Positions 1-25,236 of a stretch of 25,691 nucleotides of DNA are shown here, one piece after another. The DNA lies in assembly GCA_047495785.1 (NCBI GenBank), contig JBLDXI010000123.1, positions 1 through 25,691 of the forward strand, given 5' to 3'. A model generated the notes under the pieces. The model made no database searches, had not been told where the DNA came from, and saw only the letters and a list, made by a program, of their open reading frames with translations. Positions within the stretch are counted from its first letter, which is position 1. Every line of letters starts with the position of its first letter. The DNA comes from Lepidodermella squamata. Its lineage: Eukaryota > Animalia > Gastrotricha. The position numbers were made by a program, and so were the translations under genes.

Positions 1-3000
1 CGGTGCCGTGACCCAGTCGGTAGTAATCCCCCTTACCGAAAGTGAACACTTTGCCGCATTTCGTTCGCACCAAAGAGAATTGAGCGCCACATTCAACCTG
101 GCAAACGCCCAGCCCGGTAAGATCAGGGACGATTGTTGGAATCGAGCAAGACTCGTTACCGCCACGGCCTAATTTCCCGAAGTCGCCGTCACCGAACGAC
201 CAAACGAGTTCATCAGCAGTGAGGACCAACGTTTGAGCGTCTCTGCTACCGCAAGCGACTTGAATGACCTCGCGGCCGCGAAACGCTTCGACCAGTTTAG
301 GCAGGAAATGATTAGTTGTATCGCCATGGCCAAGCCGGCCGAATTCGCCGAGGCCCCACGTGTACAGATCTCCATTAGCTGCGATACAAGCCGAATGCGA
401 ACTGCCGGCCGAAATCGCTTTTACAGTGATCGACTGATCAGCGAGATGTTTGATCAAGCGCGGCTCGAGGCAGGTTATTTCATCACCGTGGCCCAATTTG
501 CCGTTTTCACCGTCACCCCAGGAGTAGACGCGACCATCGACTGATAGAGCCATCGCATGCCTGCCGCCTGAATGGACGGATATCTTTGTAATGAAGGCAT
601 ATGACAGCTCGCCGCCAAGTTCTCGAGGCGTGGCAACGGTGTCTGGAACATCGCCAAGACCAAGTCGGCCATTTGACGCGTCCCCACAAGCGTAAACGTG
701 GCCATTATGAGTCAGGAAAAAGCTGCACTTCGAACCGAACGAAAGTGAAACAACCCCAACACCAGCAAATGGCAGCGGCTCTTCGATAAATGGCTGTTTG
801 ACCTTGAAAAAAATTTGCATTAAAACCATGATTATTTAATGAGGCCAAAATTAGTGAAAGCTTACTTTGACTGGTCCTCGCCGTGCGAGCTGTTCCTTAT
901 CATTGAGACCCCAGCCATAAACAATCGTTGGTGGACTGTTTTGGGTAAATTGAGTAGTGCTTTGAGCACCTACTGTGGTCGAAGAAGTCGTTCGCAGCAT
1001 GTTACGGCGAATGATGGCTTGCGGCAAGTGGTCATCACTATCCTCACCTTCTGAGGACGAACTGAGGACTAAAATTTCGTCTTCATCGGCGAGAGTGATC
1101 GATTTCTTAGAGTCGCTGCTTTCGTCGTCATCAACCATGCCTTGGTCGCCGTCAGCCGCTCCAAGAATCTGGTGGCGGGTGGGCATCATTCTGGGAGAAA
1201 TCATCAAATTGCTGATTCTACACGGCGTATTGAGTCCACCACGAGTCCCGGGAATTCGAATTTCCACGCAGGCATAATACTTGTGAAGAGGTTTTGCAAG
1301 CATCTCGACAACAACGATGTCTGGCGCGACTGGGAAGGTTCGAACTGTACGCAATCGGGTCGGAGACTGGCCGATGCGAAGAACGAGTACGCTTGGTAAC
1401 GAATCAGGACGATGTGATTCCAATTCGACGCAAATTGATTGCAACAGAACGCCAGGTTTGATCGACAACTGAATCCAATGAGGAGGGTTAACGCCTGGTT
1501 GTGAGAACCAAGAAATCGGGGACCCTGGTTGCGCTTGTTTGAAAAGATTGACATTCGAAGACGCTGCTACATGCGAAACACAGGCTGACCACGTGTTACA
1601 TGGATTCGCTACTGCTGTTGAGCTCGAAGCTTTGAAAGTAGACGTTCCACTACGCTCGTCTCGCTTAGCAAAAATAGGCCCACGTGTCTTCACGAATGCA
1701 AAAAGACCGTGGACATGGCTGTTCTGCGACAAACGGCGCCGGCATGAGGCGCAAACGATGAAAAATTCCGGAGGTTTACACTTCCGGCATCGATAATAAA
1801 TAGTATCAGATGAGACGTTGATATCATTCTCGCACTCCGAGCAAATAACCATGGGCTCTGATGGAATGATTTCGAGCTCTTTGCGCAGCCCGGCCCAGCG
1901 ATGTTGTTGCTGGAAGTTGACGTAGACAAGATCGTCCAACAGAGCGACGACCACACCGATGGAGCCATGAGTGACAGAGCCCCATTTGTATCGTGGAACA
2001 GTCACAGAGTCGCGAACCTTGACTGAATCGCCAATTTCAATCTCACGCTTGGTTTCCCACGGCCAGGAAACGACTGATAAATCAGTCGAGCTAACCCATA
2101 ACCGCTGACCGCAAAGTCGCCAATAGACTAACACATTTTTCGCTGACATGCCTCCCTCAGCTTTATTGCTGCTGCGAGGTTCTTCCAACGAGCTACCAAT
2201 CAAACGATTCAAGGATCGGAACTGGGATGAAAATGAAGGCAGTCCAGCCCGGGTGGTGGCCGCTTCAACTCCGACTCGAAGGACGAATCCGGTCTCTCCA
2301 GCGATGACGCCGTCGATTCTTACTAAGCTCTTCACGATTTGACCAACGCTAACTTCTGAATTCGGAGTAAGTTCGCCCGCAACTTCAGCAGCCAAAACAG
2401 TTGGCGACCTAGAGGCTTGGTCGCGGCGAACAGATCGGCCAAAAGCTGCAATGGGTGGCCTTAAACGGCTTCCTAGACCAGCCAAAGCCCCCTCGGCACG
2501 TTCCTCAGAACTGCTAGCTGCATTATCCTCACCCTCTTCGTTAGAAGTGGACGAAGAAGTCGCGCCGAGCATATTTAGTGACAATGTATCTTCTCCATCA
2601 TCACCAACCAGGGTAGAGGATAGAAACCGACCGAGTGATCGGCGTAATAATGGCTGTCGATCGCGCCTATTTGGGCGGCGCGAGTTGTTCGAAGCTGCAG
2701 TGTTCGATTCTGCTGAGTCATCGACTAACGGCGGGTTCTCGACCAGCCAATTTACGACAGCATCAAGACTCGGCGGGCGAGAATCCGCCTCGGGTAGTAG
2801 GGAAGCGTAAGCTTCGTAGATATGAGATCGAGAAAATCCCATTTCAGTCAAACGCCTCACATCGCTGTCATCCTCGCCGATGGGCAGGCCAGGGGTCGGC
2901 TCCTCGTCCCAGGCAGTTGACGTGCCACCAGTTCCAGCGGCGATCAATTCGCCACATTCAATTGTTGTGACAGTGTCGTCTTCGCTCGTCGATAGATTCT

Positions 3001-3523
3001 CACCATCTAGCTTAATTGAATGAGATTCCTCCTCGGAGTCGTCGATATTAGCGACACCGGATGCGGAATCGAACCCACCACAAGCTTGGTCGAAGCCCGA
3101 TGAAGCCGGATTGTTAGAGGACGTTTTCATGGAAGATTCAACCGATAGTGTTTGCAAAGACCCAGCTTCGTCTATCGTCTCGATTTCTCCGCCCGGGGTG
3201 CCGGATGGGTTGTGAACTAACGAGACTGAAGATGAAGAGGGTGTCGAAGGATAATGTCGGCAAACTTCGATGAGTGGCGTGAGCGCGGTTTGAATTGTCA
3301 TTGGCGAGTATTTTGGCCTGACATTCGTGCTTTTGCTAGCTGCTTTTACCAAGTGCACGAAATCTGCTACGTTTGTAAAATTCAACATTGAAGTCGATCT
3401 GCTACCAAGTGAAGACGAAACGAATTGCATGAAAAGCTTGGCCGATTGGAATAGCATAGACTTCTTCGTGTTATTCACAGCTGAGCTATCAACACCAGCT
3501 AGTAACAACTGCCGGTCAAGATA
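1..3523 (-). CDS. HERC2: HERC2-like giant E3 ubiquitin ligase, internal part (exons 3523-866 and 802-<1; 63-nt intron 803-865); 5' part cut off at the element junction, 3' part runs off the window
   Basis: Domain order matches HERC2: UBA-like (RRLTEMGFSR...SLDAVVNWLVEN), CPH-like, SH3-like IEIGDSVKVRDSVTVPRYKWGSVTHGSIGVV, ZZ-like Cys cluster, DOC/APC10-like, then RCC1 repeats (VYGWGLNDKEQL; after splicing GHVYACGDASNGRLGLG, SVHSGGRHAMALS, GKVFTFGKGDYYRLGHG). Frame is open up to the junction (YLDRQLLLAG). Confidence 0.9.
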
Positions 3524-3545
3524 AGTAGTAAGGATGGGAACTTTG

Positions 3546-3710
3546 GATCAGTAATAGCAGTACGGCGATTTTTACTATAGCCGTTTGGTATAAATATACG
3601 CAATTTGCGATCAGTAATGGCAGTACGGCGATTTTTACTATACCCGTTTGGTATAAATATACGCAATTTGGGGATGAGTAATAGCAGTACGGCGATTTGT
3701 ACTATAGCCG
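3546..3710 (+). repeat. Subterminal tandem repeat, about 2.6 copies of a 63-64 bp unit
   Basis: GATCAGTAATAGCAGTACGGCGATTTTTACTATAGCCGTTTGGTATAAATATACGCAATTTG-like unit starts at 3546, 3609 and 3673 (partial). Confidence 0.95.
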
Positions 3711-3976
3711 CTTCTTGTCAATATACCTTCGTTTTAACCCACTGCTATGATTTCACCTAACTAAAATAAACAAATCTTCGTTTTTTCACCTGTTATGAGC
3801 TAAACTAATCATTTTTACACTGCTTCTTTAGTGCAGCTGCAATAGAGCCCTTTTTCATTCACACAAACACTTTTTATTAGTCTTAACGTTTCAAGCAATG
3901 AATTTATAGCTGGGATAAGTCTTATCAGTTTTTCTATTCATTTGTTCAGAGATTTGTAGCGGCTTGATTGGAGGGG

Positions 3977-4480
3977 TTAACGTCCAGATGAACCGAATCC
4001 GTTATCGCCACGGGTCGAATTTGCTGCTAGAGCGTTTTTCAATGGCCCCGTTACCGTTACTGCAGATTCTAAGCGACCATATTTTAAACACACCAACTGG
4101 GTAATACGGTCGCCTATTTTAATCTTGTAAGGTGTTTTGCTGTTGTTTGCAAGGCAGACTACGATTTTTCCGGTGTAGTCGGCGTCTTTAATTCATGAAA
4201 AATACAGATATTCATTAGTAATTTTCATTATTATTTGCTTCTTACCTATTACTCCAGCGACCGTATCGATTCCATGGTTGATGCTCATTCCTGATCGACT
4301 GAATAGTTGTCCATAATATCCTCGTGGTAAACAGATTTTAATATCAGTTTGAATCAGTCCCCTGGTTCCAGGTTGCAGTGTCGTCTCTTCTGCTGAATAG
4401 ATGTCCCAACCCACAGAGCCTTTAGTATGCTTTGTCGGTTCTTTAGCTTTGTTACTTGTTAGCTCTACCTTCAGCTTCAT
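3977..4480 (-). CDS. dut: Trimeric dUTPase, 147 aa, 2 exons (60-nt intron 4186-4245)
   Basis: Spliced product has all five motifs: VGWDI, SRSG, GVI|DADYTG, GDRITQL, RGDNGFGSSG. Confidence 0.95.
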
Positions 4481-4914
4481 ATTTTATAATTTATATTGTT
4501 ACTGAGGTTCGATTTTTATGTGAGCGGCTACCTCCTTTCAGGCATATTGTTTTTGTAATTCAATCTTCCTTAAAAATGCATTAGGGCCTTTAGCTCTGTT
4601 GACCCCTCAGTGCTGGCTTTAATGCTTTTCATCAAAGATTCTTGGTATTGTATACATCCTCCTTAATTGCTGTCGGTAATTCAATAAGAAAACATCATGT
4701 CAATAAATCTTATACATCCTCCCTAATTAAACAATGCGATTTTTTACTTATCAAAATAAAAAGCAATTAGGATTTTTTACCCTTTACGGTGTAATTACCT
4801 TAAACAATTCAAACAAAACATCTCCCTGTTTTTTCCTTTTATGGAAATATCACTCAGACTATTTAAGAGAGATGCTTCAAGAATACACTTAGCATATTTC
4901 TTGAAGCAAGCTGG
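4481..4914. promoter_or_regulatory. Putative divergent promoter region between dUTPase and dNK
   Basis: AT-rich gap between head-to-head genes; TATTTAA at about 4860; 18-bp direct repeat TATACATCCTCC(T/C)TAATT at 4651 and 4711. Confidence 0.5.
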
Positions 4915-5679
4915 ATGCATCCTAAAGTCTACCATTTCGGCATAGTCGGCAACATTGGGGCGTAAGTCTCATATACTCCACCGAATAGAATTCTATTTAA
5001 AGTCTCTTGTTTTAGCGGGAAATCAACCTTAATCGAGGGTCTCACTAATCTACCTTCACTCAACCGTAAACTTCAGGGATATACCGCGTGGCCAATTTGC
5101 GAGCCTGTTCATCGTTGGGAGTCCTTTACTGATGACGATAAAACTAACATTTTGAAAGATTACTATCAGATGAAAAATGCGTTCAACTTTCAAATTGTAG
5201 CCACGAGTGATATGTGCGGCCTTTATTCAGCCCCTAACCACAAACCTGAAATCTACGGGGCGCATACTATCGTTCTGCATGATCGAACGCCCTTCTGTTC
5301 TAAAAACGTCTTTATCCCATGTGCGTATGCATCCAAGCGCATAAATTCTATCGAATATCACGCTCTCATGAATTTGTATGATAATTTCGAGCCGAATTTT
5401 GTAAAAACTGAAGCTATTATTTACTTGCGCTCCTCTCCCCAAATAGCTTGTCAAAGAGCCGTAGCTAGAGCTCGGGGTTCTGAAATGCTATTATCACTGG
5501 ATTATTTACGCCTCGTACATGAGTTTCATGAAAAAATGTGTACTGTTGAGACTACAAACAAATCCCTACCATGTCCCGTGCTTGTTATCGACACTGATAA
5601 TTTGAATGCCTCTGAGGTTCTAAAGCAAGCTTCTCAGTATGTTGCCTCTCTTATCACGCCTGTAATCTCTCAGACTTGA
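4915..5679 (+). CDS. Deoxynucleoside kinase (dNK/TK2 family), 236 aa, 2 exons (54-nt intron 4962-5015)
   Basis: Splicing restores P-loop GNIGA|GKST; EPVHRW, DRT at the ERS/DRS position, IIYLRSSP, lid RAVARARGSE, YLRLVHEFHE. Confidence 0.92.
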
Positions 5680-5689
5680 ATCCTCATTG

Positions 5690-6052
5690 ATGGATCCAAC
5701 AAGACTTGTGCTCTCGAACAGCCAGATTTTAGACGCTGAATCTTTGCAATGTCCAATTTGTTTATCTATCCTACTTAATCCTATTCAAACGCGCCCCTGT
5801 GGCCATTTATTTTGTACTAAATGTGTTCTCGCTATTTTTCAAAATTCAGCTCGAACAGTATGTTGCTGTCCACTTTGCCGCGAATCATTAACAGGGAAAG
5901 ATTTCGTTAAACCCCCTGTAATTTTATCGAACATTATCTCGAATTTGATTTACAAATGCCAATATTCTGATAAAGGCTGTCCCATTACTCTAACTTATGA
6001 CCTCATTTTTGGGCATGAAAAGTTATGCCAATATAAAGAACCCATCCCTTAA
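5690..6052 (+). CDS. C3HC4 RING finger protein with a C-terminal TRAF/SIAH-like Zn finger, 120 aa
   Basis: CPIC...PCGHLFCTKC...CPLCR followed by CQYSDKGC...HEKLCQY; ATG at 5690. Confidence 0.88.
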   Translation: MDPTRLVLSNSQILDAESLQCPICLSILLNPIQTRPCGHLFCTKCVLAIFQNSARTVCCCPLCRESLTGKDFVKPPVILSNIISNLIYKCQYSDKGCPITLTYDLIFGHEKLCQYKEPIP

Positions 6053-6094
6053 AGTTTTACATTCTTATTTCATTAGATTTAATTTTCAATAATC

Positions 6095-6616
6095 ATGGCT
6101 GAGGCGATAGTAGAATCTGCTAACCAGACAGTCAATCATCACATGTCTAGTAACTTGGTCATTCAACAGCATCCTCAGGATTCTAATCTCATCTACATAA
6201 TGACTGATCGCAAAGATAAGAACGATAAGCCTAAAAAACTCGCCTTTAGACAAGACGAATTTCTTAGCCAGTTCGTTCCTTATTTTCGACCGCCGAATGA
6301 TGCTTGGGTTGCTCAGGCTCAACTTGCCCTGCTATCTCACAACACAGGCTTTAAATTTTCGATGCATGAATGCAAAATTGAAGTCTGTGTCTTTGTGCCA
6401 TCATTTTCACCGATTCTTATAGATATACGCAGGTTTTATCTGGATGCTAAAGGTATTTACTTCAAATTTACAGTAATAGCAATCTTTTTATGATTTAACT
6501 TTTTAGGAAATAAACAACCCTCAAGACAAGGAGTCTCTCTTGATGCAGCTCAGTTTCAAGACCTTGCAACTGGGGTGTTAACTGTTGCAGCGATGATTGA
6601 AACAGCCAATGAATAA
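6095..6616 (+). CDS. PC4 (p15/Sub1)-like ssDNA-binding protein, 155 aa, 2 exons (54-nt intron 6453-6506)
   Basis: Spliced C-terminus ILIDIRRFYLDAKG|NKQPSRQGVSLDAAQFQDL matches the PC4 signature (IDIRxFY...PxxxGISL...QF/W); AATAAA at 6675. Confidence 0.8.
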
Positions 6617-6733
6617 GCTAACACAAAACTTGACTAAAATGACTTACTGAATATTTATTTCAATCTATCCTTGTAATAAAGTTTTACCTCTTCCCAAATT
6701 CGATCAATTTTAAATTTTTAATCTTAGATTGTT

Positions 6734-9700
6734 ATGGATAACTATAGTTTACAATACTCATTTATTCGAAGTAATCGCCTGATTCATTCTACAAAATTCA
6801 AAATGTTTTCTGTGGAGTACTTCATTCAGCCCGTAACATCCGACTTTGCCTCAACCTACATCAACAGATATGGCCAATCTTCTAGTTCGCTTGGGCCGAT
6901 GATTCAATTGTCTGGTGGCGCTGATGAACCTCGACTGGATAATATTCGATCATTTGTGCAGAACGTACCAGCCGACCAGGTGGCTAATATTGATTTGGAG
7001 ACCCGCTTCAATATTCTGGCCAACTTCCTGTTCGATATTGTTGTAAATATCCATCGTGATTTACCTGTGAATTCCTTCTGCCGGCTAACACTGTACCACC
7101 CCGACTTGAAGATGCCTCTTAGCCTACCCTTCATGAAACGCGATCGGTTGCTGGAAATTTCAATTTTTGATCAACTGAGAAAAATATTACAGAGTAATGA
7201 AGAACTCTCATTTGCTGGTCGGTGGACAATTCGTCTCTGTGTCATTGATAACCCCAATGCAGATCTAGGTCAAATTGTTGGTGGTTCTCGGGCAGAGCGG
7301 GCTATAAACGAAACTTTGGACAAATTTTTTCTTCGCTCCAAATCGATCGTTAGAATCGGAGCGCGCAAGAATGAAACGAACAATCTTTGCATGGGCAGAG
7401 CTCTCATCACTGGAGTGGCTTTGGCTCACATGAAGGCGAATCCTACGGATCCATCTCTTCAAGCAACCTTCAAATCGATACGTAGTACGCGAACCAATCG
7501 TCAATTTCGCGAAGCCACGGCGCTATATCAGAAAGCGGGCTTACCTCTCAACCTTCCAGCCTACAATCTAGATGATCATTACTCAGCCCTGTGTTCGGCT
7601 ATCGATCCTGAACATAATACTTACAGATTCGTAGTATACTCGTACGAATCACAGGATGTTATTAGGGAAATCCCAGAATTTGATCATCGCGTAAGCCTTG
7701 GGTTGCTTCCTGTTGTTCTACTGGTTTATCGCAACGACGTCTCTCAGCCCAACAGTCATCATTTTCATGTCATTGCGAATCTCAACTTTATGAAGGCCAC
7801 TCTTAGCAATGCACAACGAATATGCCCCACTTGCTTTCAGACGAAAACGAGTACGGCTGTGCACAGATGCAAGTTGGCATGCTCTTCCTGCCGTAATTTT
7901 TACATGAAAAACCTGAATTTCACTTCTTTTATCATTAATATTATTTTAGGTGTATCAGGGAGCATTTGCCGTGTGATTTCCAACACAGACCAACAAAACT
8001 ACACGCGGTGTCCGCAATGTCGTGCAGGTCTGATGTTTTTAACCTTTTCATTATTATTCAGCTCTTTTTATGTTTTTAGTTTTGTATAGCGAACGTTGTA
8101 AGCAAAACCACAAATGTGCTAAAAAGAATCCATGCTTTAAATGCGGGAGGAAATTTGTACATTTTCTCAAGCATGAGGCTATGTGTCCCGGGCGGCGCTG
8201 TCACATTTGTCAGGAGCCTTTGAAAGCCAGCGACGAAGAAAATGGCACACACTTCTGCTTCATGACTCCCTTGGTATACTCATTTTTTTCAGTCCAGCTT
8301 TTTTCAAAATACTGTGGTTGGTGTATTTTTAGCCCTTGAAACCGGCGAATAAACTGGAACGTTATCGTAACCTAGTTTTTTGGGACACTGAGACATTTTC
8401 GCCATCACTTGCTGATAACAACAATGAGTTCCAAGTATGCCTTATCGTTGCAAAGGTCGTATGCATACCTCACTGCATCGAAGCGAGGATTCAGCGATGC
8501 CATTCTAGTTGTGGACTTCATATTTTTTATGGAAGTCGTCCTCTGGAGGATTTCGTAAACTGGGTGCTTCTACCTATGAATTACCAGTCGATTTATTTGG
8601 CTCACAACTCAGCCAATTTCGATTCCTTATTATTACTGAAAGAAATTCAAACACGATGTTCTAAAGTGAAGATTCTTCAAAGGCAGGGATCTCTACTATG
8701 CATTGATTTCAAACAACAAAAAATCAGATTTTTGGATTCATATCTCTTTTTTCAATGCAGATTAAGGTAGGTTACCTAAGAAACACTAAGAAACTACATT
8801 GCTTACAGGTATTTGTTCAACAACAGGGATTTACCAGCAACAATGGGAATCCCAGACAAGAAAACCTTCTTTCCTTACGTCTTATGCACTAAAGAAAAGT
8901 AAGTACATCATCAACTTCTTGAGCTATTGTGATTGAATTCGCTGTAATCCTTCGAGTTTCAATCTCGAATTCCCACAGCTGCCTAATATGATCTACTATG
9001 AGCCTGACAAAATGTCTCCTTCTGAAAGAGCAGAATTTCTAACTTTCTACAACGAAAACAAACTGAAACGGTTCAGTGTTCGCCACACGTTACTGCAATA
9101 CTGCATACAGGATTGTCTAGTTTTGGAAAAGGCGTCAATCAAATTTCGGGCGCTAATGCTGGAGTTGTGTTCTACTGATGCCTTTAAAGAATGCATCACA
9201 CTAGCTTCTCTCACAAGCACATGCTTCCGCAAGCTGTTTCTTACGAAGGATACATTACCTGTCATCCCGACCGCTGGCTACTGTGGCAAGGATTCACACA
9301 GCAGGCTCTCGATAGCTTTTCTTCAATTTCTGATGGAGTCTGACCCTGAAACTTATGGTTCAATGAAACACGCTCAGAACTCACGTCAAGAAGTTCGAAT
9401 ATCTATACCTGGCCACCGTTATCCTTATCGCGTCGACGGTTTTGTTGCACGTCGTGATAAAATTCCGAGTGAACCCGATCTGATTGTCGAGGTTCATGGT
9501 TGTGCTGTCCATGGCTGCTTGCAATGCTTTGAGGCCTCACAACTAAATTTTCTATCTGGACAACCAAACGGCGTAGTTTACAAGCAAACCTTGGAACGTG
9601 AAGAGTTGTTTCGCTCGAATGGTTACATTCTTCAAAGCTTTTGGGAGCATGAAATTAGAGCTAGTTTCAAACAACACCCGAGAGCACAGGAGATTTATGA

Positions 9701-11592
9701 TAATCTCACAATAGCTAATGTAATGGAGAGCCGTTCGTTTTTCTTTGGAGGTAACTGGAGGTTTTCCCTATTTAATCTTCGCGGGATTAAAACATCATGC
9801 CTACTTTTTAGGGCGGGTCGAAGCTTTTCGTTTAATGGCTATGATTGCCGAATCACACTCAACTTCAGGCGACCAAAATTTGGAAAAGATTGCTCAAATT
9901 TGTAAGGAAAGCGGGATGCAAACCAAGGACTTCTTATTTCCATCGCCCGATTATTCTATAATTTCCGCCGACTTCAACTCGTTATATCCAAGCTGTATGA
10001 TGGATGGCTACTATGCAATAGGACCACCTAAAGTATCCACCTTGGATCTCAGATTAAACAACGAGAAACTGCAGGAGATTTATTCAAAGGAATCTTTTTT
10101 TGGTGTCGTACAAGCACGCGTAAGCTCTTCGCATCTACATATCGTCTCCCTGCTTTCATCATCACCACATTATTTTGCTAGGTATTAGCGCCGAAAAACA
10201 TCTGGCTACCTGTACTCTGCTTTCGTAGTAAACAAAACAAGCTCGTGTTCTCATGTTGCTATGCTTGTTCGTCGACTGCAAATCCAAACTTGTGCGTTTC
10301 AAGCCGTGAATGCACCCATTCTGATTATGAAAGGTCCTGGATTGGTTCGTATTGCTCTGTGGAACTGAAGTACGCTACAGATGTTCATGGCTACAGATTG
10401 CTGGAAGTCTACGAGGTTAATAATTTTGTTTAGCCAACTCATGCATGGCTTCTATCAAGTTATTTTTTTTAGATATGGGAGTTCAAGAAGAGCAATACAA
10501 TTTTCAGAGATTTCATTAAAAGATTCACCATTTTGAAGGCCGAATCCTCCGGCTGGCCGCCAAACTGTGCTACTAGTGAACAAAAAGCACAGTATTTGGA
10601 GCAATGGGAACGCATTGGTATAACGATTGATAGCAACACATCTCGTGAGAGTAAGAACCCTGGGTTACGCGCGATCGCCAAATTAGTTTTGAACAGCTTT
10701 TTTGGTCGATTTGCTATGAATTCTAATCTAGAGAGAACAGATTATATCAAATCCCCGTTTCTGCTTCAGCAAATGCTAAATAATCCAGCTTTGGAAATTG
10801 TGGATATTCAACCACTAGGCTTACTCATCAACTCTGATGATGTCTCTCGCTTGCGAATTGTAACACGGCCAACCAAAGATGCCGACGTTCCAAATGGATC
10901 CACCTCAGTTATAACAGCGGCCTTCGTAACAGCTAATGCTCGTGTGAAACTGGCTCGTGAGCTGTACCGAGTCGGCCCAAAAAGTGCTATCTACAGCGGT
11001 TAGAGAATAGCGCCGCTTATGCTACCAACATCTCTACGTTTTTTGTCTTTTGTTTTAGACACGGATTCAATTTTTTGCCTTCAAGGGCCTGGAATTACTA
11101 AAATTGAGTTCACACCCGTTCTTGGCGGCTTGGCGGATCAGCTTGATACAGGGCAACGCATCATTGCAATGGTTGTACTGGGCTGTAAGGCATATGCCCT
11201 ACTTTTTGCTGACGGCAAAGCCAAGCTAATGTTAAAGGTAATTGCTACTTGTTGTTACGCCCTCTGTTTTTTATTATTTACGTCACGCGCAGGGAATACG
11301 TCAAAGTTTTCATTCACACAGTCTTCTCGATTTTTTCTTGTTCATCAAGCATGTAATACAAAGTCTCCACGATAACGAAACCAGCGGAAGCGGGGGCCGG
11401 GGTGATAACAACAAAAACAGCGTCATCGCTGAATTGGATCAGACTCAGTTTAAAAAAGTGCATACTCCGTTATCGGAAATTCATTGTGTTCATATAACAA
11501 AAAAGATTCGTTTAACCTATGATAAACGTTGGCTACGCCCCGGCGATGCTTCCTTTCTAACTTATCCACATGGATATAGCGCTGATCAATGA
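6734..11592 (+). CDS. polB: Protein-primed family B DNA polymerase, about 1425 aa, 11 exons (introns 7893-7949, 8028-8079, 8274-8332, 8767-8826, 8899-8956, 9751-9811, 10120-10181, 10416-10472, 10999-11058, 11238-11292)
   Basis: One open frame after splicing: Cys/His-rich region, ExoI FWDTET, ExoII AHNSANFD, ExoIII YCIQD, FFG|GRVE, motif A DFNSLYP, KAESSGWP, motif B KLVLNSFFG, motif C YS|DTDS, K|G, terminal YDKR...TYPHGY. Confidence 0.93.
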
Positions 11593-11599
11593 TCGATTA

Positions 11600-12751
11600 T
11601 TACATGAATAAACTCCAAAACCCTGTGCCAGCTTGAAACTTGTTGATTTTATTTATCTTACGCTGTGACGTTCTTCGGAAAAGTTTTCCAGGTGGTGATA
11701 TTTGTGTTTGATCAGTCATAGAACGTGGCTTTCTACCGCGCTTTTGACCCTTCCGTGGCGTTGCCGCTGCAGTTGCTGCTCCAGCTAGCTCAATTTCCAT
11801 CGGTTCAGCGGCAGCGGCTTCTTCTTGCCTTTCTGCTTGATTATCATCATTATCAGCACCATCTTGCAGCTCTTCACTATTGCTGCCGCTGCTGTCCTCA
11901 TCGCCGCTAAACGAAGACGACCCTGCTGTTGTGTTGCTGTCTCGAGGGGCCTGGGGGGTGCGCGCGCGGGGGGTCCCTCCTCTCGTAGGCAGCTGCTCAT
12001 CATTAGGCCGATCAACAACAACATCATCGTGGCTGAGGACGGTCGTGGCTGCAGCGCTAGAAGTCGATGATGTTTGCGGGGCAGCGAATAGAAAATCCAT
12101 TTGAAGATCATCAAATTCATAATTGCTGCTATTATCAGTTGAAGGTCGTGGCGTTGTATTAGGTGAAAACTGCTGCTGAAAGCCGCCAATACCCGAATCT
12201 CTGTTATAGTTGTTATAGCTAGGCCCGGCCGCTTGACCAAAATTACTAGATGTTAATTTAGTAGGTTGTTGGCGCGCAAGTTGTTGTTGCTGCTGTTTTT
12301 TTGGAGGAGGAGGAGGAGGAGGAGAAGAAGCAGAAGGAAGCGGCGGCGGCGGCAGCGGAGGAGGAGGAGGAGGAGGAGGAGGAGGAGGAGGAGGAGAGCG
12401 CGGCCTCGATTCTGCTCGATCTGCTGGTGCAGGCGACATTGGAATAGCGGCTGGCGGCTGGCTACTGCCTTGTAAAACTACCAGCTTCTTCAAATTCATA
12501 ATCTCATGCATGAGTTCGTTACGTTTTCGCACTAAATCGGCTGAATTATCACTACTACTAGCGTTGTTTATCACATCCCGGTCTAAAGACTGTAATAGCT
12601 GCACTAGTTTGAAAAGCAGAGGATTGCTCAGCAATGTTTTAGCAGCAATCAAGTCGCTCGCGTTTGGTTGTTGTTGTTGTTGTTGTGCTGGAGTTGGCCC
12701 AGGTGTCGCAAGTGGAACAATAGTCATGCGCTGTGCATAGTTTCGCTGCAT
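11600..12751 (-). CDS. Pro-rich, low-complexity Maverick accessory protein, 383 aa
   Basis: Long ORF convergent with pPolB; N-terminal YAQRMTIVP resembles from memory the AxKMxLVP start of a conserved Maverick ORF; helical segment, poly-Pro, acidic tract, basic tail, terminal Trp. Confidence 0.7.
   Translation of the reverse strand: MQRNYAQRMTIVPLATPGPTPAQQQQQQPNASDLIAAKTLLSNPLLFKLVQLLQSLDRDVINNASSSDNSADLVRKRNELMHEIMNLKKLVVLQGSSQPPAAIPMSPAPADRAESRPRSPPPPPPPPPPPPPLPPPPLPSASSPPPPPPPKKQQQQQLARQQPTKLTSSNFGQAAGPSYNNYNRDSGIGGFQQQFSPNTTPRPSTDNSSNYEFDDLQMDFLFAAPQTSSTSSAAATTVLSHDDVVVDRPNDEQLPTRGGTPRARTPQAPRDSNTTAGSSSFSGDEDSSGSNSEELQDGADNDDNQAERQEEAAAAEPMEIELAGAATAAATPRKGQKRGRKPRSMTDQTQISPPGKLFRRTSQRKINKINKFQAGTGFWSLFM
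12303..12395 (+). repeat. (GGA)n/(GGC)n trinucleotide tract encoding poly-proline on the minus strand (mirror at about 13399-13491)
   Basis: Visible directly in the sequence. Confidence 0.9.
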
Positions 12752-12754
12752 AGT

Positions 12755-13168
12755 TTAGATTCGAAGAAGCCTCTTGAGTTCTGAATAATCAAACTTTAGC
12801 CTGGGTGCAAAGGATTTCAATACAGTGGGTAAAACTGCAAAAAAGGAAGCTTTCGAAGCCTTATTTCGCCTATTGTTCTTGTTGCTATTAAGGCAGTGTC
12901 GAATAAAAACTTGCCGGTTGTGCTCGACCAAATTGACACCTTTTTGTTTCAATTTAGCCAAATCAGGGGCCAGAACAGTACTAGTGCTGCGAAGCCAATA
13001 CAAGGCGCAACGGCTAAGAAATCGTATAAGGCTAACAGAGCTAGTTGCTAAAATATCAGCACGCTGACCGGGGTGAGCATGCAATAACCATTTCAATGCA
13101 AGAAAAAGCCGCCGTTTTTTATCAAGACTGAACGATGGTGACGTTGCTGAGGTAATAACTTTATTCAT
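12755..13168 (-). CDS. Small basic protein resembling a conserved Maverick/Polinton small ORF, 137 aa (single copy, in spacer)
   Basis: LKWLLHAHPGQRADILATSSVSLIRFLSRCALYWLR pattern and amphipathic C-terminal FFAVLPTVLKSF; TATAAAA 32 nt upstream; stop lies 3 nt before the next ATG. Family assignment is from memory. Confidence 0.6.
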   Translation of the reverse strand: MNKVITSATSPSFSLDKKRRLFLALKWLLHAHPGQRADILATSSVSLIRFLSRCALYWLRSTSTVLAPDLAKLKQKGVNLVEHNRQVFIRHCLNSNKNNRRNKASKASFFAVLPTVLKSFAPRLKFDYSELKRLLRI

Positions 13169-13199
13169 TTAACGACGAAAATTGGGCGGCAATGAATCC

Positions 13200-13206
13200 T
13201 TTTATA
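13200..13206 (-). promoter_or_regulatory. Putative TATA box for the 137-aa ORF
   Basis: TATAAAAG on the minus strand about 30 nt upstream of ATG 13168. Confidence 0.45.
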
Positions 13207-13219
13207 ATAGTACATATCA

Positions 13220-13288
13220 TCATTTCTTTGAGACTAAAATGTAAGCGTAACCAGGTTTACTACCGAAGCCATTGCTCGAACGAATGCG
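13220..13288 (-). pseudogene. Possible 3' remnant of the packaging ATPase gene, cut at the breakpoint
   Basis: Reads (L)RIRSSNGFGSKPGYAYILVSKK*, loosely like the LRxRT...Y C-terminus of Maverick ATPases; only 22 codons. Confidence 0.3.
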
Positions 13289-14194
13289 GAGATTATGAAT
13301 TTGAAGAAGCTGGTAGTTTTACAAGGCAGTAGCCAGCCGCCAGCCGCTATTCCAATGTCGCCTGCACCAGCAGATCGAGCAGAATCGAGGCCGCGCTCTC
13401 CTCCTCCTCCTCCTCCTCCTCCTCCTCCTCCTCCTCCGCTGCCGCCGCCGCCGCTTCCTTCTGCTTCTTCTCCTCCTCCTCCTCCTCCTCCAAAAAAAAC
13501 AGCAGCAACAACAACTTGCGCGCCAACAACCTACTAAATTAACATCTAGTAATTTTGGTCAAGCGGCCGGCCTAGCTATAACAACTATAACAGAGATTCG
13601 GGTATTGGCGGCTTTCAGCAGCAGTTTTCACCTAATACAACGCCACGACCTTCAACTGATAATAGCAGCAATTATGAATTTGATGATCTTCAAATGGATT
13701 TTCTATTCGCTGCCCCGCAAACATCATCGACTTCTAGCGCTGCAGCCACGACCGTCCTCAGCCACGATGATGTTGTTGTTGATCGGCCTAATGATGAGCA
13801 GCTGCCTACGAGAGGAGGGACCCCCCGCGCGCGCACCCCCCAGGCCCCTCGAGACAGCAACACAACAGCAGGGTCGTCTTCGTTTAGCGGCGATGAGGAC
13901 AGCAGCGGCAGCAATAGTGAAGAGCTGCAAGATGGTGCTGATAATGATGATAATCAAGCAGAAAGGCAAGAAGAAGCCGCTGCCGCTGAACCGATGGAAA
14001 TTGAGCTAGCTGGAGCAGCAACTGCAGCGGCAACGCCACGGAAGGGTCAAAAGCGCGGTAGAAAGCCACGTTCTATGACTGATCAAACACAAATATCACC
14101 ACCTGGAAAACTTTTCCGAAGAACGTCACAGCGTAAGATAAATAAAATCAACAAGTTTCAAGCTGGCACAGGGTTTTGGAGTTTATTCATGTAA
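13289..14194 (+). pseudogene. 5'-truncated copy of the Pro-rich ORF with two compensating 1-nt indels
   Basis: Lacks the first ~82 codons; A8 versus A7 at 13492-13499 and a missing G near 13570. Confidence 0.85.
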
Positions 14195-14201
14195 TAATCG
14201 A

Positions 14202-17200
14202 TCATTGATCAGCGCTATATCCATGTGGATAAGTTAGAAAGGAAGCATCGCCGGGGCGTAGCCAACGTTTATCATAGGTTAAACGAATCTTTTTTGTTAT
14301 ATGAACACAATGAATTTCCGATAACGGAGTATGCACTTTTTTAAACTGAGTCTGATCCAATTCAGCGATGACGCTGTTTTTGTTGTTATCACCCCGGCCC
14401 CCGCTTCCGCTGGTTTCGTTATCGTGGAGACTTTGTATTACATGCTTGATGAACAAGAAAAAATCGAGAAGACTGCGTGAATGAAAACTTTGACGTATTC
14501 CCTGCGCGTGACGTAAATAATAAAAAACAGAGGGCGTAACAACAAGTAGCAATTACCTTTAACATTAGCTTGGCTTTGCCGTCAGCAAAAAGTAGGGCAT
14601 ATGCCTTACAGCCCAGTACAACCATTGCAATGATGCGTTGCCCTGTATCAAGCTGATCCGCCAAGCCGCCAAGAACGGGTGTGAACTCAATTTTAGTAAT
14701 TCCAGGCCCTTGAAGGCAAAAAATTGAATCCGTGTCTAAAACAAAAGACAAAAAACGTAGAGATGTTGGTAGCATAAGCGGCGCTATTCTCTAACCGCTG
14801 TAGATAGCACTTTTTGGGCCGACTCGGTACAGCTCACGAGCCAGTTTCACACGAGCATTAGCTGTTACGAAGGCCGCTGTTATAACTGAGGTGGATCCAT
14901 TTGGAACGTCGGCATCTTTGGTTGGCCGTGTTACAATTCGCAAGCGAGAGACATCATCAGAGTTGATGAGTAAGCCTAGTGGTTGAATATCCACAATTTC
15001 CAAAGCTGGATTATTTAGCATTTGCTGAAGCAGAAACGGGGATTTGATATAATCTGTTCTCTCTAGATTAGAATTCATAGCAAATCGACCAAAAAAGCTG
15101 TTCAAAACTAATTTGGCGATCGCGCGTAACCCAGGGTTCTTTTTATCCAACTTGGTGCTATCAATCGTTATACCAATGCGTTCCCATTGCTCCAAATACT
15201 GTGCTTTTTGTTCACTAGTAGCACAGTTTGGCGGCCAGCCGGAGGATTCGGCCTTCAAAATGGTGAATCTTTTAATGAAATCTCTGAAAATTGTATTGCT
15301 CTTCTTGAACTCCCATATCTAAAAAAAATAACTTGATAGAAGCCATGCATGAGTTGGCTAAACAAAATTATTAACCTCGTAGACTTCCAGCAATCTGTAG
15401 CCATGAACATCTGTAGCGTACTTCAGTTCCACAGAGCAATACGAACCAATCCAGGACCTTTCATAATCAGAATGGGTGCATTCACGGCTTGAAACGCACA
15501 AGTTTGGATTTGCAGTCGACGAACAAGCATAGCAACATGAGAACACGAGCTTGTTTTGTTTACTACGAAAGCAGAGTACAGGTAGCCAGATGTTTTTCGG
15601 CGCTAATACCTAGCAAAATAATGTGGTGATGATGAAAGCAGGGAGACGATATGTAGATGCGAAGAGCTTACGCGTGCTTGTACGACACCAAAAAAAGATT
15701 CCTTTGAATAAATCTCCTGCAGTTTCTCGTTGTTTAATCTGAGATCCAAGGTGGATACTTTAGGTGGTCCTATTGCATAGTAGCCATCCATCATACAGCT
15801 TGGATATAACGAGTTGAAGTCGGCGGAAATTATAGAATAATCGGGCGATGGAAATAAGAAGTCCTTGGTTTGCATCCCGCTTTCCTTACAAATTTGAGCA
15901 ATCTTTTCCAAATTTTGGTCGCCTGAAGTTGAGTGTGATTCGGCAATCATAGCCATTAAACGAAAAGCTTCGACCCGCCCTAAAAAGTAGGCATGATGTT
16001 TTAATCCCGCGAAGATTAAATAGGGAAAACCTCCAGTTACCTCCAAAGAAAAACGAACGGCTCTCCATTACATTAGCTATTGTGAGATTATCATAAATCT
16101 CCTGTGCTCTCGGGTGTTGTTTGAAACTAGCTCTAATTTCATGCTCCCAAAAGCTTTGAAGAATGTAACCATTCGAGCGAAACAACTCTTCACGTTCCAA
16201 GGTTTGCTTGTAAACTACGCCGTTTGGTTGTCCAGATAGAAAATTTAGTTGTGAGGCCTCAAAGCATTGCAAGCAGCCATGGACAGCACAACCATGAACC
16301 TCGACAATCAGATCGGGTTCACTCGGAATTTTATCACGACGTGCAACAAAACCGTCGACGCGATAAGGATAACGGTGGCCAGGTATAGATATTCGAACTT
16401 CTTGACGTGAGTTCTGAGCGTGTTTCATTGAACCATAAGTTTCAGGGTCAGACTCCATCAGAAATTGAAGAAAAGCTATCGAGAGCCTGCTGTGTGAATC
16501 CTTGCCACAGTAGCCAGCGGTCGGGATGACAGGTAATGTATCCTTCGTAAGAAACAGCTTGCGGAAGCATGTGCTTGTGAGAGAAGCTAGTGTGATGCAT
16601 TCTTTAAAGGCATCAGTAGAACACAACTCCAGCATTAGCGCCCGAAATTTGATTGACGCCTTTTCCAAAACTAGACAATCCTGTATGCAGTATTGCAGTA
16701 ACGTGTGGCGAACACTGAACCGTTTCAGTTTGTTTTCGTTGTAGAAAGTTAGAAATTCTGCTCTTTCAGAAGGAGACATTTTGTCAGGCTCATAGTAGAT
16801 CATATTAGGCAGCTGTGGGAATTCGAGATTGAAACTCGAAGGATTACAGCGAATTCAATCACAATAGCTCAAGAAGTTGATGATGTACTTACTTTTCTTT
16901 AGTGCATAAGACGTAAGGAAAGAAGGTTTTCTTGTCTGGGATTCCCATTGTTGCTGGTAAATCCCTGTTGTTGAACAAATACCTGTAAGCAATGTAGTTT
17001 CTTAGTGTTTCTTAGGTAACCTACCTTAATCTGCATTGAAAAAAGAGATATGAATCCAAAAATCTGATTTTTTGTTGTTTGAAATCAATGCATAGTAGAG
17101 ATCCCTGCCTTTGAAGAATCTTCACTTTAGAACATCGTGTTTGAATTTCTTTCAGTAATAATAAGGAATCGAAATTGGCTGAGTTGTGAGCCAAATAAAT

Positions 17201-19057
17201 CGACTGGTAATTCATAGGTAGAAGCACCCAGTTTACGAAATCCTCCAGAGGACGACTTCCATAAAAAATATGAAGTCCACAACTAGAATGGCATCGCTGA
17301 ATCCTCGCTTCGATGCAGTGAGGTATGCATACGACCTTTGCAACGATAAGGCATACTTGGAACTCATTGTTGTTATCAGCAAGTGATGGCGAAAATGTCT
17401 CAGTGTCCCAAAAAACTAGGTTACGATAACGTTCCAGTTTATTCGCCGGTTTCAAGGGCTAAAAATACACCAACCACAGTATTTTGAAAAAAGCTGGACT
17501 GAAAAAAATGAGTATACCAAGGGAGTCATGAAGCAGAAGTGTGTGCCATTTTCTTCGTCGCTGGCTTTCAAAGGCTCCTGACAAATGTGACAGCGCCGCC
17601 CGGGACACATAGCCTCATGCTTGAGAAAATGTACAAATTTCCTCCCGCATTTAAAGCATGGATTCTTTTTAGCACATTTGTGGTTTTGCTTACAACGTTC
17701 GCTATACAAAACTAAAAACATAAAAAGAGCTGAATAATAATGAAAAGGTTAAAAACATCAGACCTGCACGACATTGCGGACACCGCGTGTAGTTTTGTTG
17801 GTCTGTGTTGGAAATCACACGGCAAATGCTCCCTGATACACCTAAAATAATATTAATGATAAAAGAAGTGAAATTCAGGTTTTTCATGTAAAAATTACGG
17901 CAGGAAGAGCATGCCAACTTGCATCTGTGCACAGCCGTACTCGTTTTCGTCTGAAAGCAAGTGGGGCATATTCGTTGTGCATTGCTAAGAGTGGCCTTCA
18001 TAAAGTTGAGATTCGCAATGACATGAAAATGATGACTGTTGGGCTGAGAGACGTCGTTGCGATAAACCAGTAGAACAACAGGAAGCAACCCAAGGCTTAC
18101 GCGATGATCAAATTCTGGGATTTCCCTAATAACATCCTGTGATTCGTACGAGTATACTACGAATCTGTAAGTATTATGTTCAGGATCGATAGCCGAACAC
18201 AGGGCTGAGTAATGATCATCTAGATTGTAGGCTGGAAGGTTGAGAGGTAAGCCCGCTTTCTGATATAGCGCCGTGGCTTCGCGAAATTGACGATTGGTTC
18301 GCGTACTACGTATCGATTTGAAGGTTGCTTGAAGAGATGGATCCGTAGGATTCGCCTTCATGTGAGCCAAAGCCACTCCAGTGATGAGAGCTCTGCCCAT
18401 GCAAAGATTGTTCGTTTCATTCTTGCGCGCTCCGATTCTAACGATCGATTTGGAGCGAAGAAAAAATTTGTCCAAAGTTTCGTTTATAGCCCGCTCTGCC
18501 CGAGAACCACCAACAATTTGACCTAGATCTGCATTGGGGTTATCAATGACACAGAGACGAATTGTCCACCGACCAGCAAATGAGAGTTCTTCATTACTCT
18601 GTAATATTTTTCTCAGTTGATCAAAAATTGAAATTTCCAGCAACCGATCGCGTTTCATGAAGGGTAGGCTAAGAGGCATCTTCAAGTCGGGGTGGTACAG
18701 TGTTAGCCGGCAGAAGGAATTCACAGGTAAATCACGATGGATATTTACAACAATATCGAACAGGAAGTTGGCCAGAATATTGAAGCGGGTCTCCAAATCA
18801 ATATTAGCCACCTGGTCGGCTGGTACGTTCTGCACAAATGATCGAATATTATCCAGTCGAGGTTCATCAGCGCCACCAGACAATTGAATCATCGGCCCAA
18901 GCGAACTAGAAGATTGGCCATATCTGTTGATGTAGGTTGAGGCAAAGTCGGATGTTACGGGCTGAATGAAGTACTCCACAGAAAACATTTTGAATTTTGT
19001 AGAATGAATCAGGCGATTACTTCGAATAAATGAGTATTGTAAACTATAGTTATCCAT
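14202..19057 (-). CDS. polB: pPolB, mirror copy (about 1424 aa, same 10 introns)
   Basis: Reverse complement of 6734-11592; differs by TKLDK versus NTSRES and one H/R change. Confidence 0.93.
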
Positions 19058-19174
19058 AACAATCTAAGATTAAAAATTTAAAATTGATCGAATTTGGGAA
19101 GAGGTAAAACTTTATTACAAGGATAGATTGAAATAAATATTCAGTAAGTCATTTTAGTCAAGTTTTGTGTTAGC

Positions 19175-19696
19175 TTATTCATTGGCTGTTTCAATCATCG
19201 CTGCAACAGTTAACACCCCAGTTGCAAGGTCTTGAAACTGAGCTGCATCAAGAGAGACTCCTTGTCTTGAGGGTTGTTTATTTCCTAAAAAGTTAAATCA
19301 TAAAAAGATTGCTATTACTGTAAATTTGAAGTAAATACCTTTAGCATCCAGATAAAACCTGCGTATATCTATAAGAATCGGTGAAAATGATGGCACAAAG
19401 ACACAGACTTCAATTTTGCATTCATGCATCGAAAATTTAAAGCCTGTGTTGTGAGATAGCAGGGCAAGTTGAGCCTGAGCAACCCAAGCATCATTCGGCG
19501 GTCGAAAATAAGGAACGAACTGGCTAAGAAATTCGTCTTGTCTAAAGGCGAGTTTTTTAGGCTTATCGTTCTTATCTTTGCGATCAGTCATTATGTAGAT
19601 GAGATTAGAATCCTGAGGATGCTGTTGAATGACCAAGTTACTAGACATGTGATGATTGACTGTCTGGTTAGCAGATTCTACTATCGCCTCAGCCAT
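19175..19696 (-). CDS. PC4-like protein, mirror copy
   Basis: Reverse complement of 6095-6616. Confidence 0.8.
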
Positions 19697-19738
19697 GATT
19701 ATTGAAAATTAAATCTAATGAAATAAGAATGTAAAACT

Positions 19739-20101
19739 TTAAGGGATGGGTTCTTTATATTGGCATAACTTTTCATGCCCAAAAATGAGGTCATAAGTTA
19801 GAGTAATGGGACAGCCTTTATCAGAATATTGGCATTTGTAAATCAAATTCGAGATAATGTTCGATAAAATTACAGGGGGTTTAACGAAATCTTTCCCTGT
19901 TAATGATTCGCGGCAAAGTGGACAGCAACATACTGTTCGAGCTGAATTTTGAAAAATAGCGAGAACACATTTAGTACAAAATAAATGGCCACAGGGGCGC
20001 GTTTGAATAGGATTAAGTAGGATAGATAAACAAATTGGACATTGCAAAGATTCAGCGTCTAAAATCTGGCTGTTCGAGAGCACAAGTCTTGTTGGATCCA
20101 T
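19739..20101 (-). CDS. RING finger protein, mirror copy
   Basis: Reverse complement of 5690-6052. Confidence 0.88.
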   Translation of the reverse strand: MDPTRLVLSNSQILDAESLQCPICLSILLNPIQTRPCGHLFCTKCVLAIFQNSARTVCCCPLCRESLTGKDFVKPPVILSNIISNLIYKCQYSDKGCPITLTYDLIFGHEKLCQYKEPIP

Positions 20102-20111
20102 CAATGAGGAT

Positions 20112-22245: not shown

Positions 22246-22267
22246 CAAAGTTCCCATCCTTACTACT

Positions 22268-25166: not shown

Positions 25167-25236
25167 AAATGTGAAAACAACGGGAATTTATTTTATGATT
25201 TTTTTCGCTCGTCCTTTCATCAATAAATGTTTGAGA

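Follow-up and report, generated by a model that had tools for sequence, protein, structure and literature searches.

A spliced, intron-dense pPolB gene in a probably recently mobile Polinton/Maverick-type element

Organization and gene content of the element

The window (the whole 25,691-nt stretch of DNA analysed here) holds two near-identical arms of about 9 kb each, placed head to head between two unrelated host genes. The left arm (3524..13288, + strand) begins with AGTAGT and carries three subterminal repeats of ~63 nt at 3539-3728, and the right arm (13289..22267, - strand) is a near-identical inverted copy of 3524-12505, which ends with ACTACT and contains a second gene for the protein-primed PolB (pPolB) at 14202-19057. 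Only six blocks of difference separate the arms across ~9 kb, and the place where they meet, near 12505/13289, is a short and imperfect match. The ends carry the terminal motif (AGT)2//(ACT)2, with AGTAGT at 3524 and ACTACT up to 22267, and the element boundary is confirmed by an empty site found in public runs (the runs used here are X1, X2 and X3).

The pPolB gene of the left arm (6734..11592, + strand) is accompanied by a set of accessory genes. The dUTPase gene (3977..4480, - strand; 147 aa; PF00692) has a 60-nt intron at 4186-4245 with a splice joint in X1, and the deoxynucleoside kinase gene (4915..5679, + strand; 236 aa; PF01712) has a 54-nt intron at 4962-5015 with joints in X1 and X3. 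No intron was seen in the RING-finger gene (5690..6052, + strand; 120 aa; PF00097), and RING ORFs also occur in 3 of the 95 loci related to the pPolB locus. A likely PC4-like ssDNA-binding protein (6095..6616, + strand; 155 aa) is encoded across a 54-nt intron (6453-6506; joints in X1 and X3), and its second exon reached only E 0.31 against PF02229, short of the cut-off. On the other side of pPolB lie a proline/glutamine-rich ORF (11600..12751, - strand; 383 aa), which matches no family and is whole in the left arm and split in the right one, and a small basic ORF (12755..13168, - strand; 137 aa). Neither the Atlas nor the protein collection contains a match to the latter, which weakly resembles a small basic ORF adjoining pPolB in 5 of the 95 related loci; this likeness ranked 1 of 1,001 against shuffles, yet its E of 0.018 is close to that of the best shuffle (0.02). 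Neither an integrase nor an ATPase, protease or capsid gene was found in the window (22 of 101 ORFs scanned, including all long arm ORFs), and PHROGs gave 0 families for 7/7 window proteins.

With ten introns in pPolB and one each in the dUTPase, kinase and PC4-like genes, the element has 13 spliced introns in 7.8 kb, versus 1 intron in 5.5 kb of host flanking coding DNA. The three introns of the neighbouring genes and the inverted second pPolB had been overlooked by an earlier, sequence-only reading of this DNA.

The pPolB gene and its protein

The eleven exons of pPolB sum to 4,278 nt, from the ATG at 6734 to the TGA at 11590-11592, and encode 1,425 aa with a terminal protein (TP) domain, vOTU, zinc fingers, Exo I-III, a Vsr-like insert, Pol A-C and KxY. 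The sequence-only reading had proposed one frame of ~1425 aa, and this frame was recovered in full: 11/11 exons, each translated separately in the frame set by the cumulated exon length, have no internal stop, with intron phases of 1, 1, 0, 2, 2, 1, 0, 0, 1 and 0.

Four pPolB fragments match PF03175 (Pfam), and residues 95-1425 align with a single protein (P0001) at 25.8% identity (E 1.6e-111). The vOTU residues C219 and H343 correspond to columns conserved in 32/33 and 33/33 relatives, respectively, and a profile of the relatives matches Vsr (E 0.003). An exon-1 model with a pLDDT of 76 has structural matches to PolB of the adintovirus, MELD-virus and bidnavirus types (best E 5e-7), the nearest folds being adintovirus PolB; exon 1 folded alone gave a poor model (pLDDT 42). 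Foldseek against PDB returned weak, Y-family little-finger-like matches for pPolB, none of them below E 0.001. A close relative is absent, the top identity being 41% among the 150 matches listed, and searching viral contigs with single pPolB exons gave no match. In the tree, pPolB sits on a long branch (1.51 vs a median of 0.40) and falls in no placed group.

The protein has the TP-vOTU-Exo-Palm order of the Polinton/Maverick protein-primed PolB. This architecture and the terminal motif support the assignment of the element to the Polinton/Maverick type, in a window that holds no integrase, capsid or target-site duplication. Intronless core genes, a descriptive Polinton/Maverick trait rather than part of the family definition, are not what the element shows, as its pPolB has ten spliced introns.

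Ten introns interrupt pPolB, all on the + strand and all spliced in X1: intron 1 (7893..7949; 57 nt, phase 1), intron 2 (8028..8079; 52 nt, phase 1), intron 3 (8274..8332; 59 nt, phase 0), intron 4 (8767..8826; 60 nt, phase 2), intron 5 (8899..8956; 58 nt, phase 2, with an uncommon GAG acceptor), intron 6 (9751..9811; 61 nt, phase 1, inside the FFG/GR motif), intron 7 (10120..10181; 62 nt, phase 0), and introns 8 (10416..10472; 57 nt, phase 0), 9 (10999..11058; 60 nt, phase 1, inside the Pol C motif YS/DTDS) and 10 (11238..11292; 55 nt, phase 0, splitting K/G), the last three also spliced in X3. The sizes and the three split motifs are exactly as the sequence-only reading had given them. All ten introns are GT-AG (52-62 nt), with a GC content of 0.34 vs 0.43 in the exons, and an exonic AG directly precedes the intron at 5/10 exon ends (background 0.049, p 6e-5). 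Together with the pyrimidine-rich acceptors and exact removal (the RNA nature of X1 being inferred), these are U2-type spliceosomal traits; a branch-point consensus was not found in most of the ten. If retained, six of the introns would shift the frame and three others would bring in an in-frame stop, and read-through would be possible only for intron 1.

Splicing in public runs

Junction use in transcripts, a check named beforehand, bore the proposed structure out: splice joints are present at 10/10 pPolB introns in X1 and at 3/10 in X3 (introns 8-10, the portion that X3 covers), with the frame kept. In X2, a DNA-like run, joints are found at 0/10 and all ten introns are kept. A 4,731-nt contig of X1 equals the span 6833-12147 less the ten introns and less a 3-nt difference, and the X1 bin depths fit zero intron cover in 10/10 tested bins to within 0.2. 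Since joints occur at all ten places in X1, the junctions are not due to chance. The host intergenic stretch 23355-23705 has zero depth in X1 and X3 versus 97-115 in X2; X1 therefore behaves as RNA and is likely a cDNA run, its nature being judged from this behaviour, as none of the runs is registered as RNA. The splice evidence is at the level of assembled contigs, and support for introns 1-7 comes from one run (X1).

The pPolB fragments between stops are at most 453 aa long and 50 of the 59 breaks in related loci look like decay, as would be expected if the gene were a decayed pseudogene in which GT-AG pairs happen to span the frameshifts. But X1 skips all ten segments exactly, which refutes this reading, the exons are stop-free and the relatives are gapless at the junctions, so that we regard it as almost certainly wrong. 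The gene is intron-dense, intact and spliced.

Host flanks, mobility and the head-to-head layout

The left flank (1..3523, - strand) is a piece of a host HERC2-like gene with RCC1 repeats and UBA, which we take to be HERC2 from its domain order; its frame reaches the element end, and a 63-nt intron is predicted at 803-865. The right flank (22268..22476, - strand) belongs to a host RINGv gene into which the element is inserted, and the empty site is seen in X1 and X2. A 913-nt contig of X2, with a depth of 141, leads from the RINGv gene into sequence outside the element, which on visual inspection supplies the rest of the RINGv cysteine pair. A flanking host ADH has 41-47% identity to many animals, with flatworms among its best single-domain matches; in a quick tree its end branch was 3.09 and it received no placement. 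The host is likely an animal.

Flanks other than those of the window follow the element end in both X1 and X2. The depth of element contigs in X2 is 1,533-2,186 versus ~93-141 for host contigs (a ratio of 10.9-15.5 against 141), contig depth not being equal to copy number. The insertions thus appear dispersed and polymorphic, as is typical of Polintons, and the (AGT)2//(ACT)2 ends, the ~11-16-fold host depth, the empty site and the other flanks suggest that the element was probably mobile recently. The sequence-only reading had called the lineage potentially functional, and this is supported by the intact catalytic motifs, raised depth and empty insertion site, with polymerase activity and autonomy as predictions for an element that shows no integrase or capsid gene in the window.

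The introns of 52-62 nt are of host size (one host intron has 63 nt), splicing is clean and the window lacks morphogenesis genes, which would suit a now immobile, host-owned cluster domesticated from a Polinton, with introns accrued after capture. This is very unlikely, however: the insertion polymorphism (empty site, several flanks, 11-16-fold depth) largely refutes it, and the ends are intact, coding DNA was hit at both flanks, and the GC of the element is 0.41 versus 0.51 and 0.45 in the flanks.

The repeat arms measure ~9 kb, next to 0.05-1.5 kb for the terminal inverted repeats that enclose a unique core in Polintons/Mavericks; a second end type has the outer ~77 nt in common with them. 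No target-site duplication (5-8 bp for Polinton/Maverick) was found between the two window flanks; because these lie in two different genes, they do not frame a single insertion. Most likely, two separate insertions have been joined at equivalent ends, by assembly mis-join or by rearrangement, which would hide the half with integrase and capsid from the window. Alternatively, the palindrome of ~18.7 kb would itself be what moves: a replication-only, fold-back form with two pPolB arms and neither integrase nor capsid, which copies itself and integrates with the aid of another element. The Maverick motif on both ends, the template-switch-like short match at which the arms meet, and the X2 depth, which is 2,186 at the end and declines steadily to 1,533 around 12 kb, fit such a unit. 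Against it, the flanks lie in unrelated genes without a duplication, so that a simple insertion does not explain every join in the assembly; the second terminal variant, present in 3/3 runs and alike in just the outer ~77 nt, may be the missing other end; and the proline-rich ORF is split only in the right arm, as from consensus errors. We consider the palindromic unit unlikely, and retain the joining of two insertions.

Origin of the introns

Among the related loci, 69 of 95 are single ORFs. Nine candidate introns occur in 5/95 loci, which are scattered over the tree, and all nine are at least 7 codons away from any of the ten pPolB introns. The relatives align without gaps across the pPolB junctions, the 50 decay-like breaks (of 59) have no intron-sized gap, and the 66 in-frame insertions of at least 13 aa in related loci yielded no convincing additional intron. 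Fragmentary relatives have 9 of 80 ends and 8 of 75 starts near the pPolB junctions; these edges were rejected as a trace of shared introns, since an internal Met and the limits of the query account for them. Given that there is no close relative, that most loci are single ORFs, and that the candidate positions differ and their loci are scattered, the pPolB introns were most likely gained independently of the candidate introns in relatives. Judged from sequence, intron-bearing pPolBs appear to recur. Two things limit the sequence-only interpretation: these five loci, and published proviruses with introners.

Introners (intron-generating transposons) have been reported from dinoflagellate Polinton-like proviruses (bioRxiv 2025.03.18.643946, as far as its available text goes), and the narrow size range and the 5/10 introns after an exonic AG would suit recent introner insertions here. 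Yet only 1 of 78 pairs among the 13 introns is alike at p 0.005 against shuffles, about the expectation for 78 tests, and boundary repeats are 0-3 nt; similar repeated introns and terminal repeats or duplications, the marks of introners, are absent among the 13. Recent insertion is thus highly improbable, and the pPolB introns may still be ancient introner copies.

Comparison with known systems

According to the accessible text of PMC8097293, intact vertebrate Polintons/Mavericks have intronless ORFs, terminal inverted repeats of 46-1,447 bp and 6-bp duplications. They share with the window the pPolB, the 5'-(AGT)2//(ACT)2-3' ends, accessory genes between end and pPolB, and genes pointing to the centre, but the window has 13 spliced introns and ~9-kb arms, and shows no duplication, integrase or capsid. 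Nematode Polintons/Mavericks, in the portions available of bioRxiv 2023.08.22.554363 and 2022.07.12.499685, likewise have Exo I-III, Pol A-C and KxY, and the Vsr-type insert is common to the window's pPolB and a pPolB2 subgroup of marine nematodes and molluscs, the window's pPolB being assigned here to neither the pPolB1 nor the pPolB2 group. In these accounts, introns are found only in host-derived cargo and core genes are intronless, whereas the core pPolB of the window has ten. The adintoviruses and the TP-vOTU-Exo-Palm class (PMC8502044, PMC11161782) resemble it in an OTU-bearing PF03175-type PolB with catalytic Cys and His; introns go unmentioned in the sections available from these sources, and the window lacks virion genes. 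The dinoflagellate proviruses also have spliceosomal introns within the element, which are described in the available part of bioRxiv 2025.03.18.643946 as repeated copies of a transposon, of young age and in a protist rich in introns, in contrast to the mutually unrelated introns of the window, in a likely animal, removed across the whole pPolB. A literature search for intron-rich pPolB, with Repbase entries and paper supplements (which may contain intron-bearing Polintons) outside its scope, turned up nothing beyond the introner paper and a description of group I introns in cryptophyte PLVs.

Adenoviruses replicate linear dsDNA in the nucleus by protein priming and use host splicing. Their TP is a separate gene and their vOTU is inactive, according to the part of PMC11161782 available, while the TP of the window is fused, C219 and H343 are intact and the element is integrated in host genes. 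A separate terminal protein, an inactive vOTU and a lack of integration, which are traits of Adenoviridae, are therefore not found here.

One Polinton survey filtered pPolB ORFs at 900 aa or more, another used a prokaryotic gene caller as endogenous viruses 'do not contain introns', and a third took Genewise introns as decay. The longest stop-free stretch of the unspliced gene is 453 aa, in agreement with the earlier expectation that ORF pipelines would miss it. The intron-dense Polinton-type lineage proposed at the same time is likewise borne out by the splicing seen, the pPolB architecture and the terminal motif. Intron-bearing pPolBs appear to be a recurring, overlooked variant, and for this one there is splice evidence over the full gene.

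Proposed life cycle and significance

We consider it rather probable that the locus holds the intact protein-primed pPolB of a Polinton/Maverick-type element that has likely moved in recent times. Ten GT-AG introns interrupt this gene and every one of them is spliced out in a likely cDNA run; the element would thus likely depend on the host nuclear spliceosome for its replicase. Host RNA polymerase II would transcribe a copy that is either integrated or excised; after splicing, the message would give a TP-vOTU-Exo-Pol protein, from which the terminal protein may be freed by the vOTU; the polymerase would then copy the element starting at the AGTAGT ends, with help from the PC4-like protein and nucleotides supplied by the dUTPase and kinase. 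The introns were most likely acquired singly in the element lineage over a long nuclear residence, are old enough for mutual likeness to be lost, and were trimmed to the minimal intron size of the host; since the element replicates as DNA, they would be copied along with it. Their retention may have been favoured by higher expression or by shielding of transcripts from silencing of intronless foreign DNA, a putative benefit that we propose tentatively and with some doubt, the alternative being neutral persistence.

In a bolder and fairly unlikely extension, an active Polinton lineage would be denser in introns than the neighbouring host genes, its introns disguising transcripts as self and licensing expression, and intron-rich Polintons would have arisen repeatedly as a hidden branch filtered out by ORF surveys; in the boldest form, the mobile unit would be a palindrome made of two spliced polymerase arms and lacking both capsid and integrase.

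A spliced, intact and apparently mobile element means that ORF-based screens can mistake live elements for fossils, and it would tie the life cycle of the element to the nucleus. It also offers a compact system of intron gain, in which an ancestrally intronless gene now has ten introns whose positions differ from those in other intron-bearing relatives.

Splicing of the pPolB Gene

The Polinton/Maverick-type protein-primed DNA polymerase gene (pPolB) at 6734..11592 (+) is real and is spliced. All ten introns proposed in the sequence-only reading were found at the lengths it gave, with GT..AG ends in 10/10, and the intact frame that it had predicted was recovered, since the eleven stop-free exons (4,278 nt) run from the ATG at 6734 to the TGA at 11592 and encode 1,425 aa. 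The introns have a GC content of 0.34, vs. 0.43 in the exons; an exonic AG directly precedes five of the ten (p 6e-5), and retention of nine of the ten would break the protein, by frame shift in six and by an added stop in three.

The window is covered by three public sequencing runs (X1, X2, and X3), none of which is annotated as RNA, and the splice evidence consists of contigs, not reads. Joints of all ten pPolB introns were present in X1 at one depth, those of introns 8-10 also in X3, and none in X2, while a single run (X1) stands behind introns 1-7. A 4,731-nt contig of X1 covers 6833-12147 and falls short of that span by the summed length of the ten introns plus 3 nt, and intron cover in X1 fits zero by bin depth in 10/10 bins tested. 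The host intergenic segment 23355-23705 is covered in X2, with no cover in X1 and X3, and X1 shows loose ends that we take to be cDNA adaptor. Because of these joints, the zero cover and the loose ends, X1 and X3 are read as cDNA and X2 as DNA. One intron each is also carried by three upstream element genes (dUTPase, deoxynucleoside kinase, and PC4-like), with X1 joints for all three.

Features of the Encoded Protein

PF03175 was matched in four fragments of pPolB, and the motifs Exo I-III, Pol A, B, C, and KxY were found. The spliced translation, with X at each junction, aligned to the single protein P0001 over residues 95-1425 (25.8% identity, E 1.6e-111). Each junction was spanned by alignments to 41-138 of 151 relatives, gap-free in nearly all; as these relatives are predicted proteins, the alignments indicate correct exon boundaries, not intron absence in the relatives. 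The vOTU residues C219 and H343 fall in conserved columns (32/33 and 33/33 relatives, respectively), which match the catalytic pair described in the available part of PMC11161782. The predicted model of exon 1 (pLDDT 76) resembles PolB of adintovirus, MELD-virus, and bidnavirus type, and a 23-sequence profile matched phi29 polymerase and Vsr nuclease, with weak hits to zinc fingers and OTU1. No close relative occurred among the matches listed (identity at most 41% over exon 6); two of ten relatives checked had a named source, a nemertean and a nematode.

Structure of the Element

The pPolB gene lies inside a 9.8-kb arm (3524..13288), which starts with the Maverick end motif AGTAGT at 3524. Genes for dUTPase, deoxynucleoside kinase, RING, and a likely PC4-like protein are located upstream of pPolB, and a proline-rich ORF and a small basic ORF downstream on the opposite strand. 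Three subterminal tandem repeats of ~63 nt (3539-3728) are possible replication-origin or protein-binding sites.

The sequence 3524-12505 recurs inverted at 13289-22267 with six blocks of difference, and the covering runs support the right-arm version at 10636-10652 and 11318. A short in-frame stretch of the left arm at 10636-10652 departs from both the right arm and the runs, as either a private variant or an assembly error. The proline-rich ORF is one 383-aa frame in the left arm, and its right-arm copy (13238-14194) is in pieces. Between the two head-to-head arms of ~9 kb (3524-22267) lie 783 nt of unique sequence, with an imperfect short match at the join; the arrangement may be an assembly join or a real fold-back element. 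A second end type was observed at 22191-22267 in X1-X3, in which the outer ~77 nt are common and a diverged repeat unit follows. This may be the element's other end or that of a sister family. Since no integrase or virion genes were found within the window, we consider that the element works like a Polinton and probably is one, with incomplete family membership.

Insertion Sites and Probable Mobility

The element is flanked by two unrelated host genes, a HERC2-like gene (1-3523) and a RINGv gene (22268-22476), both broken within coding DNA and both likely ubiquitin ligases; no target duplication was found between the two flanks. A second RINGv/MARCH-like paralogue adjoins at 22658-23315, and the element has a RING gene of its own. 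The RINGv site without the element is present in a 913-nt X2 contig (depth 141) and in X1, and further flanks beyond the element end occur in both runs. Element depth in X2 is 1,533-2,186, about 11-16 times 141, where contig depth is no copy number. Together, the empty site, other flanks, and depth point to recent movement, and the element is probably mobile. Along 3730-12280, X2 contigs show a steady loss of depth toward the interior, with 2,186 at the element end and 1,533 at about 12 kb; copies with internal deletions, end-initiated replication intermediates, or amplification bias could each explain this.

Origin and Distribution of the Introns

The arm has 13 introns per about 7.8 kb of coding DNA (2.3 per kb in pPolB alone), vs. 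one predicted 63-nt intron per about 5.5 kb in the host flanks (binomial p 0.006, on a small and local sample of four genes). No splice joints were found in run contigs on the right side (22185-25691). Element introns are similar in size to the sole predicted host intron. The alcohol dehydrogenase gene at 24009-25166 is class III-type, intronless, and very divergent (at most 47% identity to any match found), and it did not place the host, which is probably a fast-evolving animal. The HERC2-like gene has an exon of 2.66 kb, which suggests that the host region is intron-poor. A young introner family was rejected as the intron source, because the introns lack mutual likeness (1/78 pairs at p 0.005) and boundary repeats are only 0-3 nt.

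The comparison covered 95 related loci, 15 of them viral and 80 from metagenomes (the best 80 of 472 confirmed); the sample is biased to loci unbroken in exon 9, and many are partial. The frame is a single ORF in 69 of the loci and broken in 26. Intron-sized gaps account for 9/59 breaks, spread over five loci, with convincing GT..AG ends in eight. L052 has four GT-AG introns of 57-67 nt (2553-4447), located in the zinc finger, in Exo III, in Pol A, and close to window intron 8; L053 (274-948), L032 (1864-1939), L055 (367-412), and L029 (5812-5909, weak) each contain one or two gaps that resemble introns (42-76 nt). None of the nine shares a position with the ten pPolB introns, all being at least 7 codons away. 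The five loci are scattered in the FastTree phylogeny (144 rows), where the window pPolB is long-branched and unplaced. The simplest reading is repeated independent intron gain.

In the portions available, previous studies described intact vertebrate Mavericks as intron-free (PMC8097293) and nematode Polinton core genes as intronless, with introns in cargo (bioRxiv 2022.07.12.499685); introns are absent from mavirus-like elements (PMC8547959). Introners were reported in dinoflagellate Polinton-like proviruses (available part of bioRxiv 2025.03.18.643946), as were group I introns in those of cryptophytes. Published surveys select long ORFs or run prokaryotic gene callers. The available parts of PMC8502044, PMC11296320, and 10.64898/2026.07.28.741278 make no mention of spliced pPolB, and no intron-rich pPolB was found in the literature covered, a scope that excludes founding papers, Repbase, and supplements. 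Intron-bearing pPolB recurs across hosts, yet is apparently unpublished.

Splicing, intact motifs, ends, and insertion polymorphism were demonstrated for the element. According to the accessible text of PMC11161782 and PMC5718144, the family replicates by protein priming from the ends, vOTU releases the terminal protein, and integrase drives insertion. The element would be transcribed by nuclear Pol II, and DNA-to-DNA copying would retain any intron once gained. By analogy with the vertebrate HUSH system, whose repression of intronless transgenes is countered by intron insertion (PMC8770142, in part), the introns may aid expression or evade silencing.
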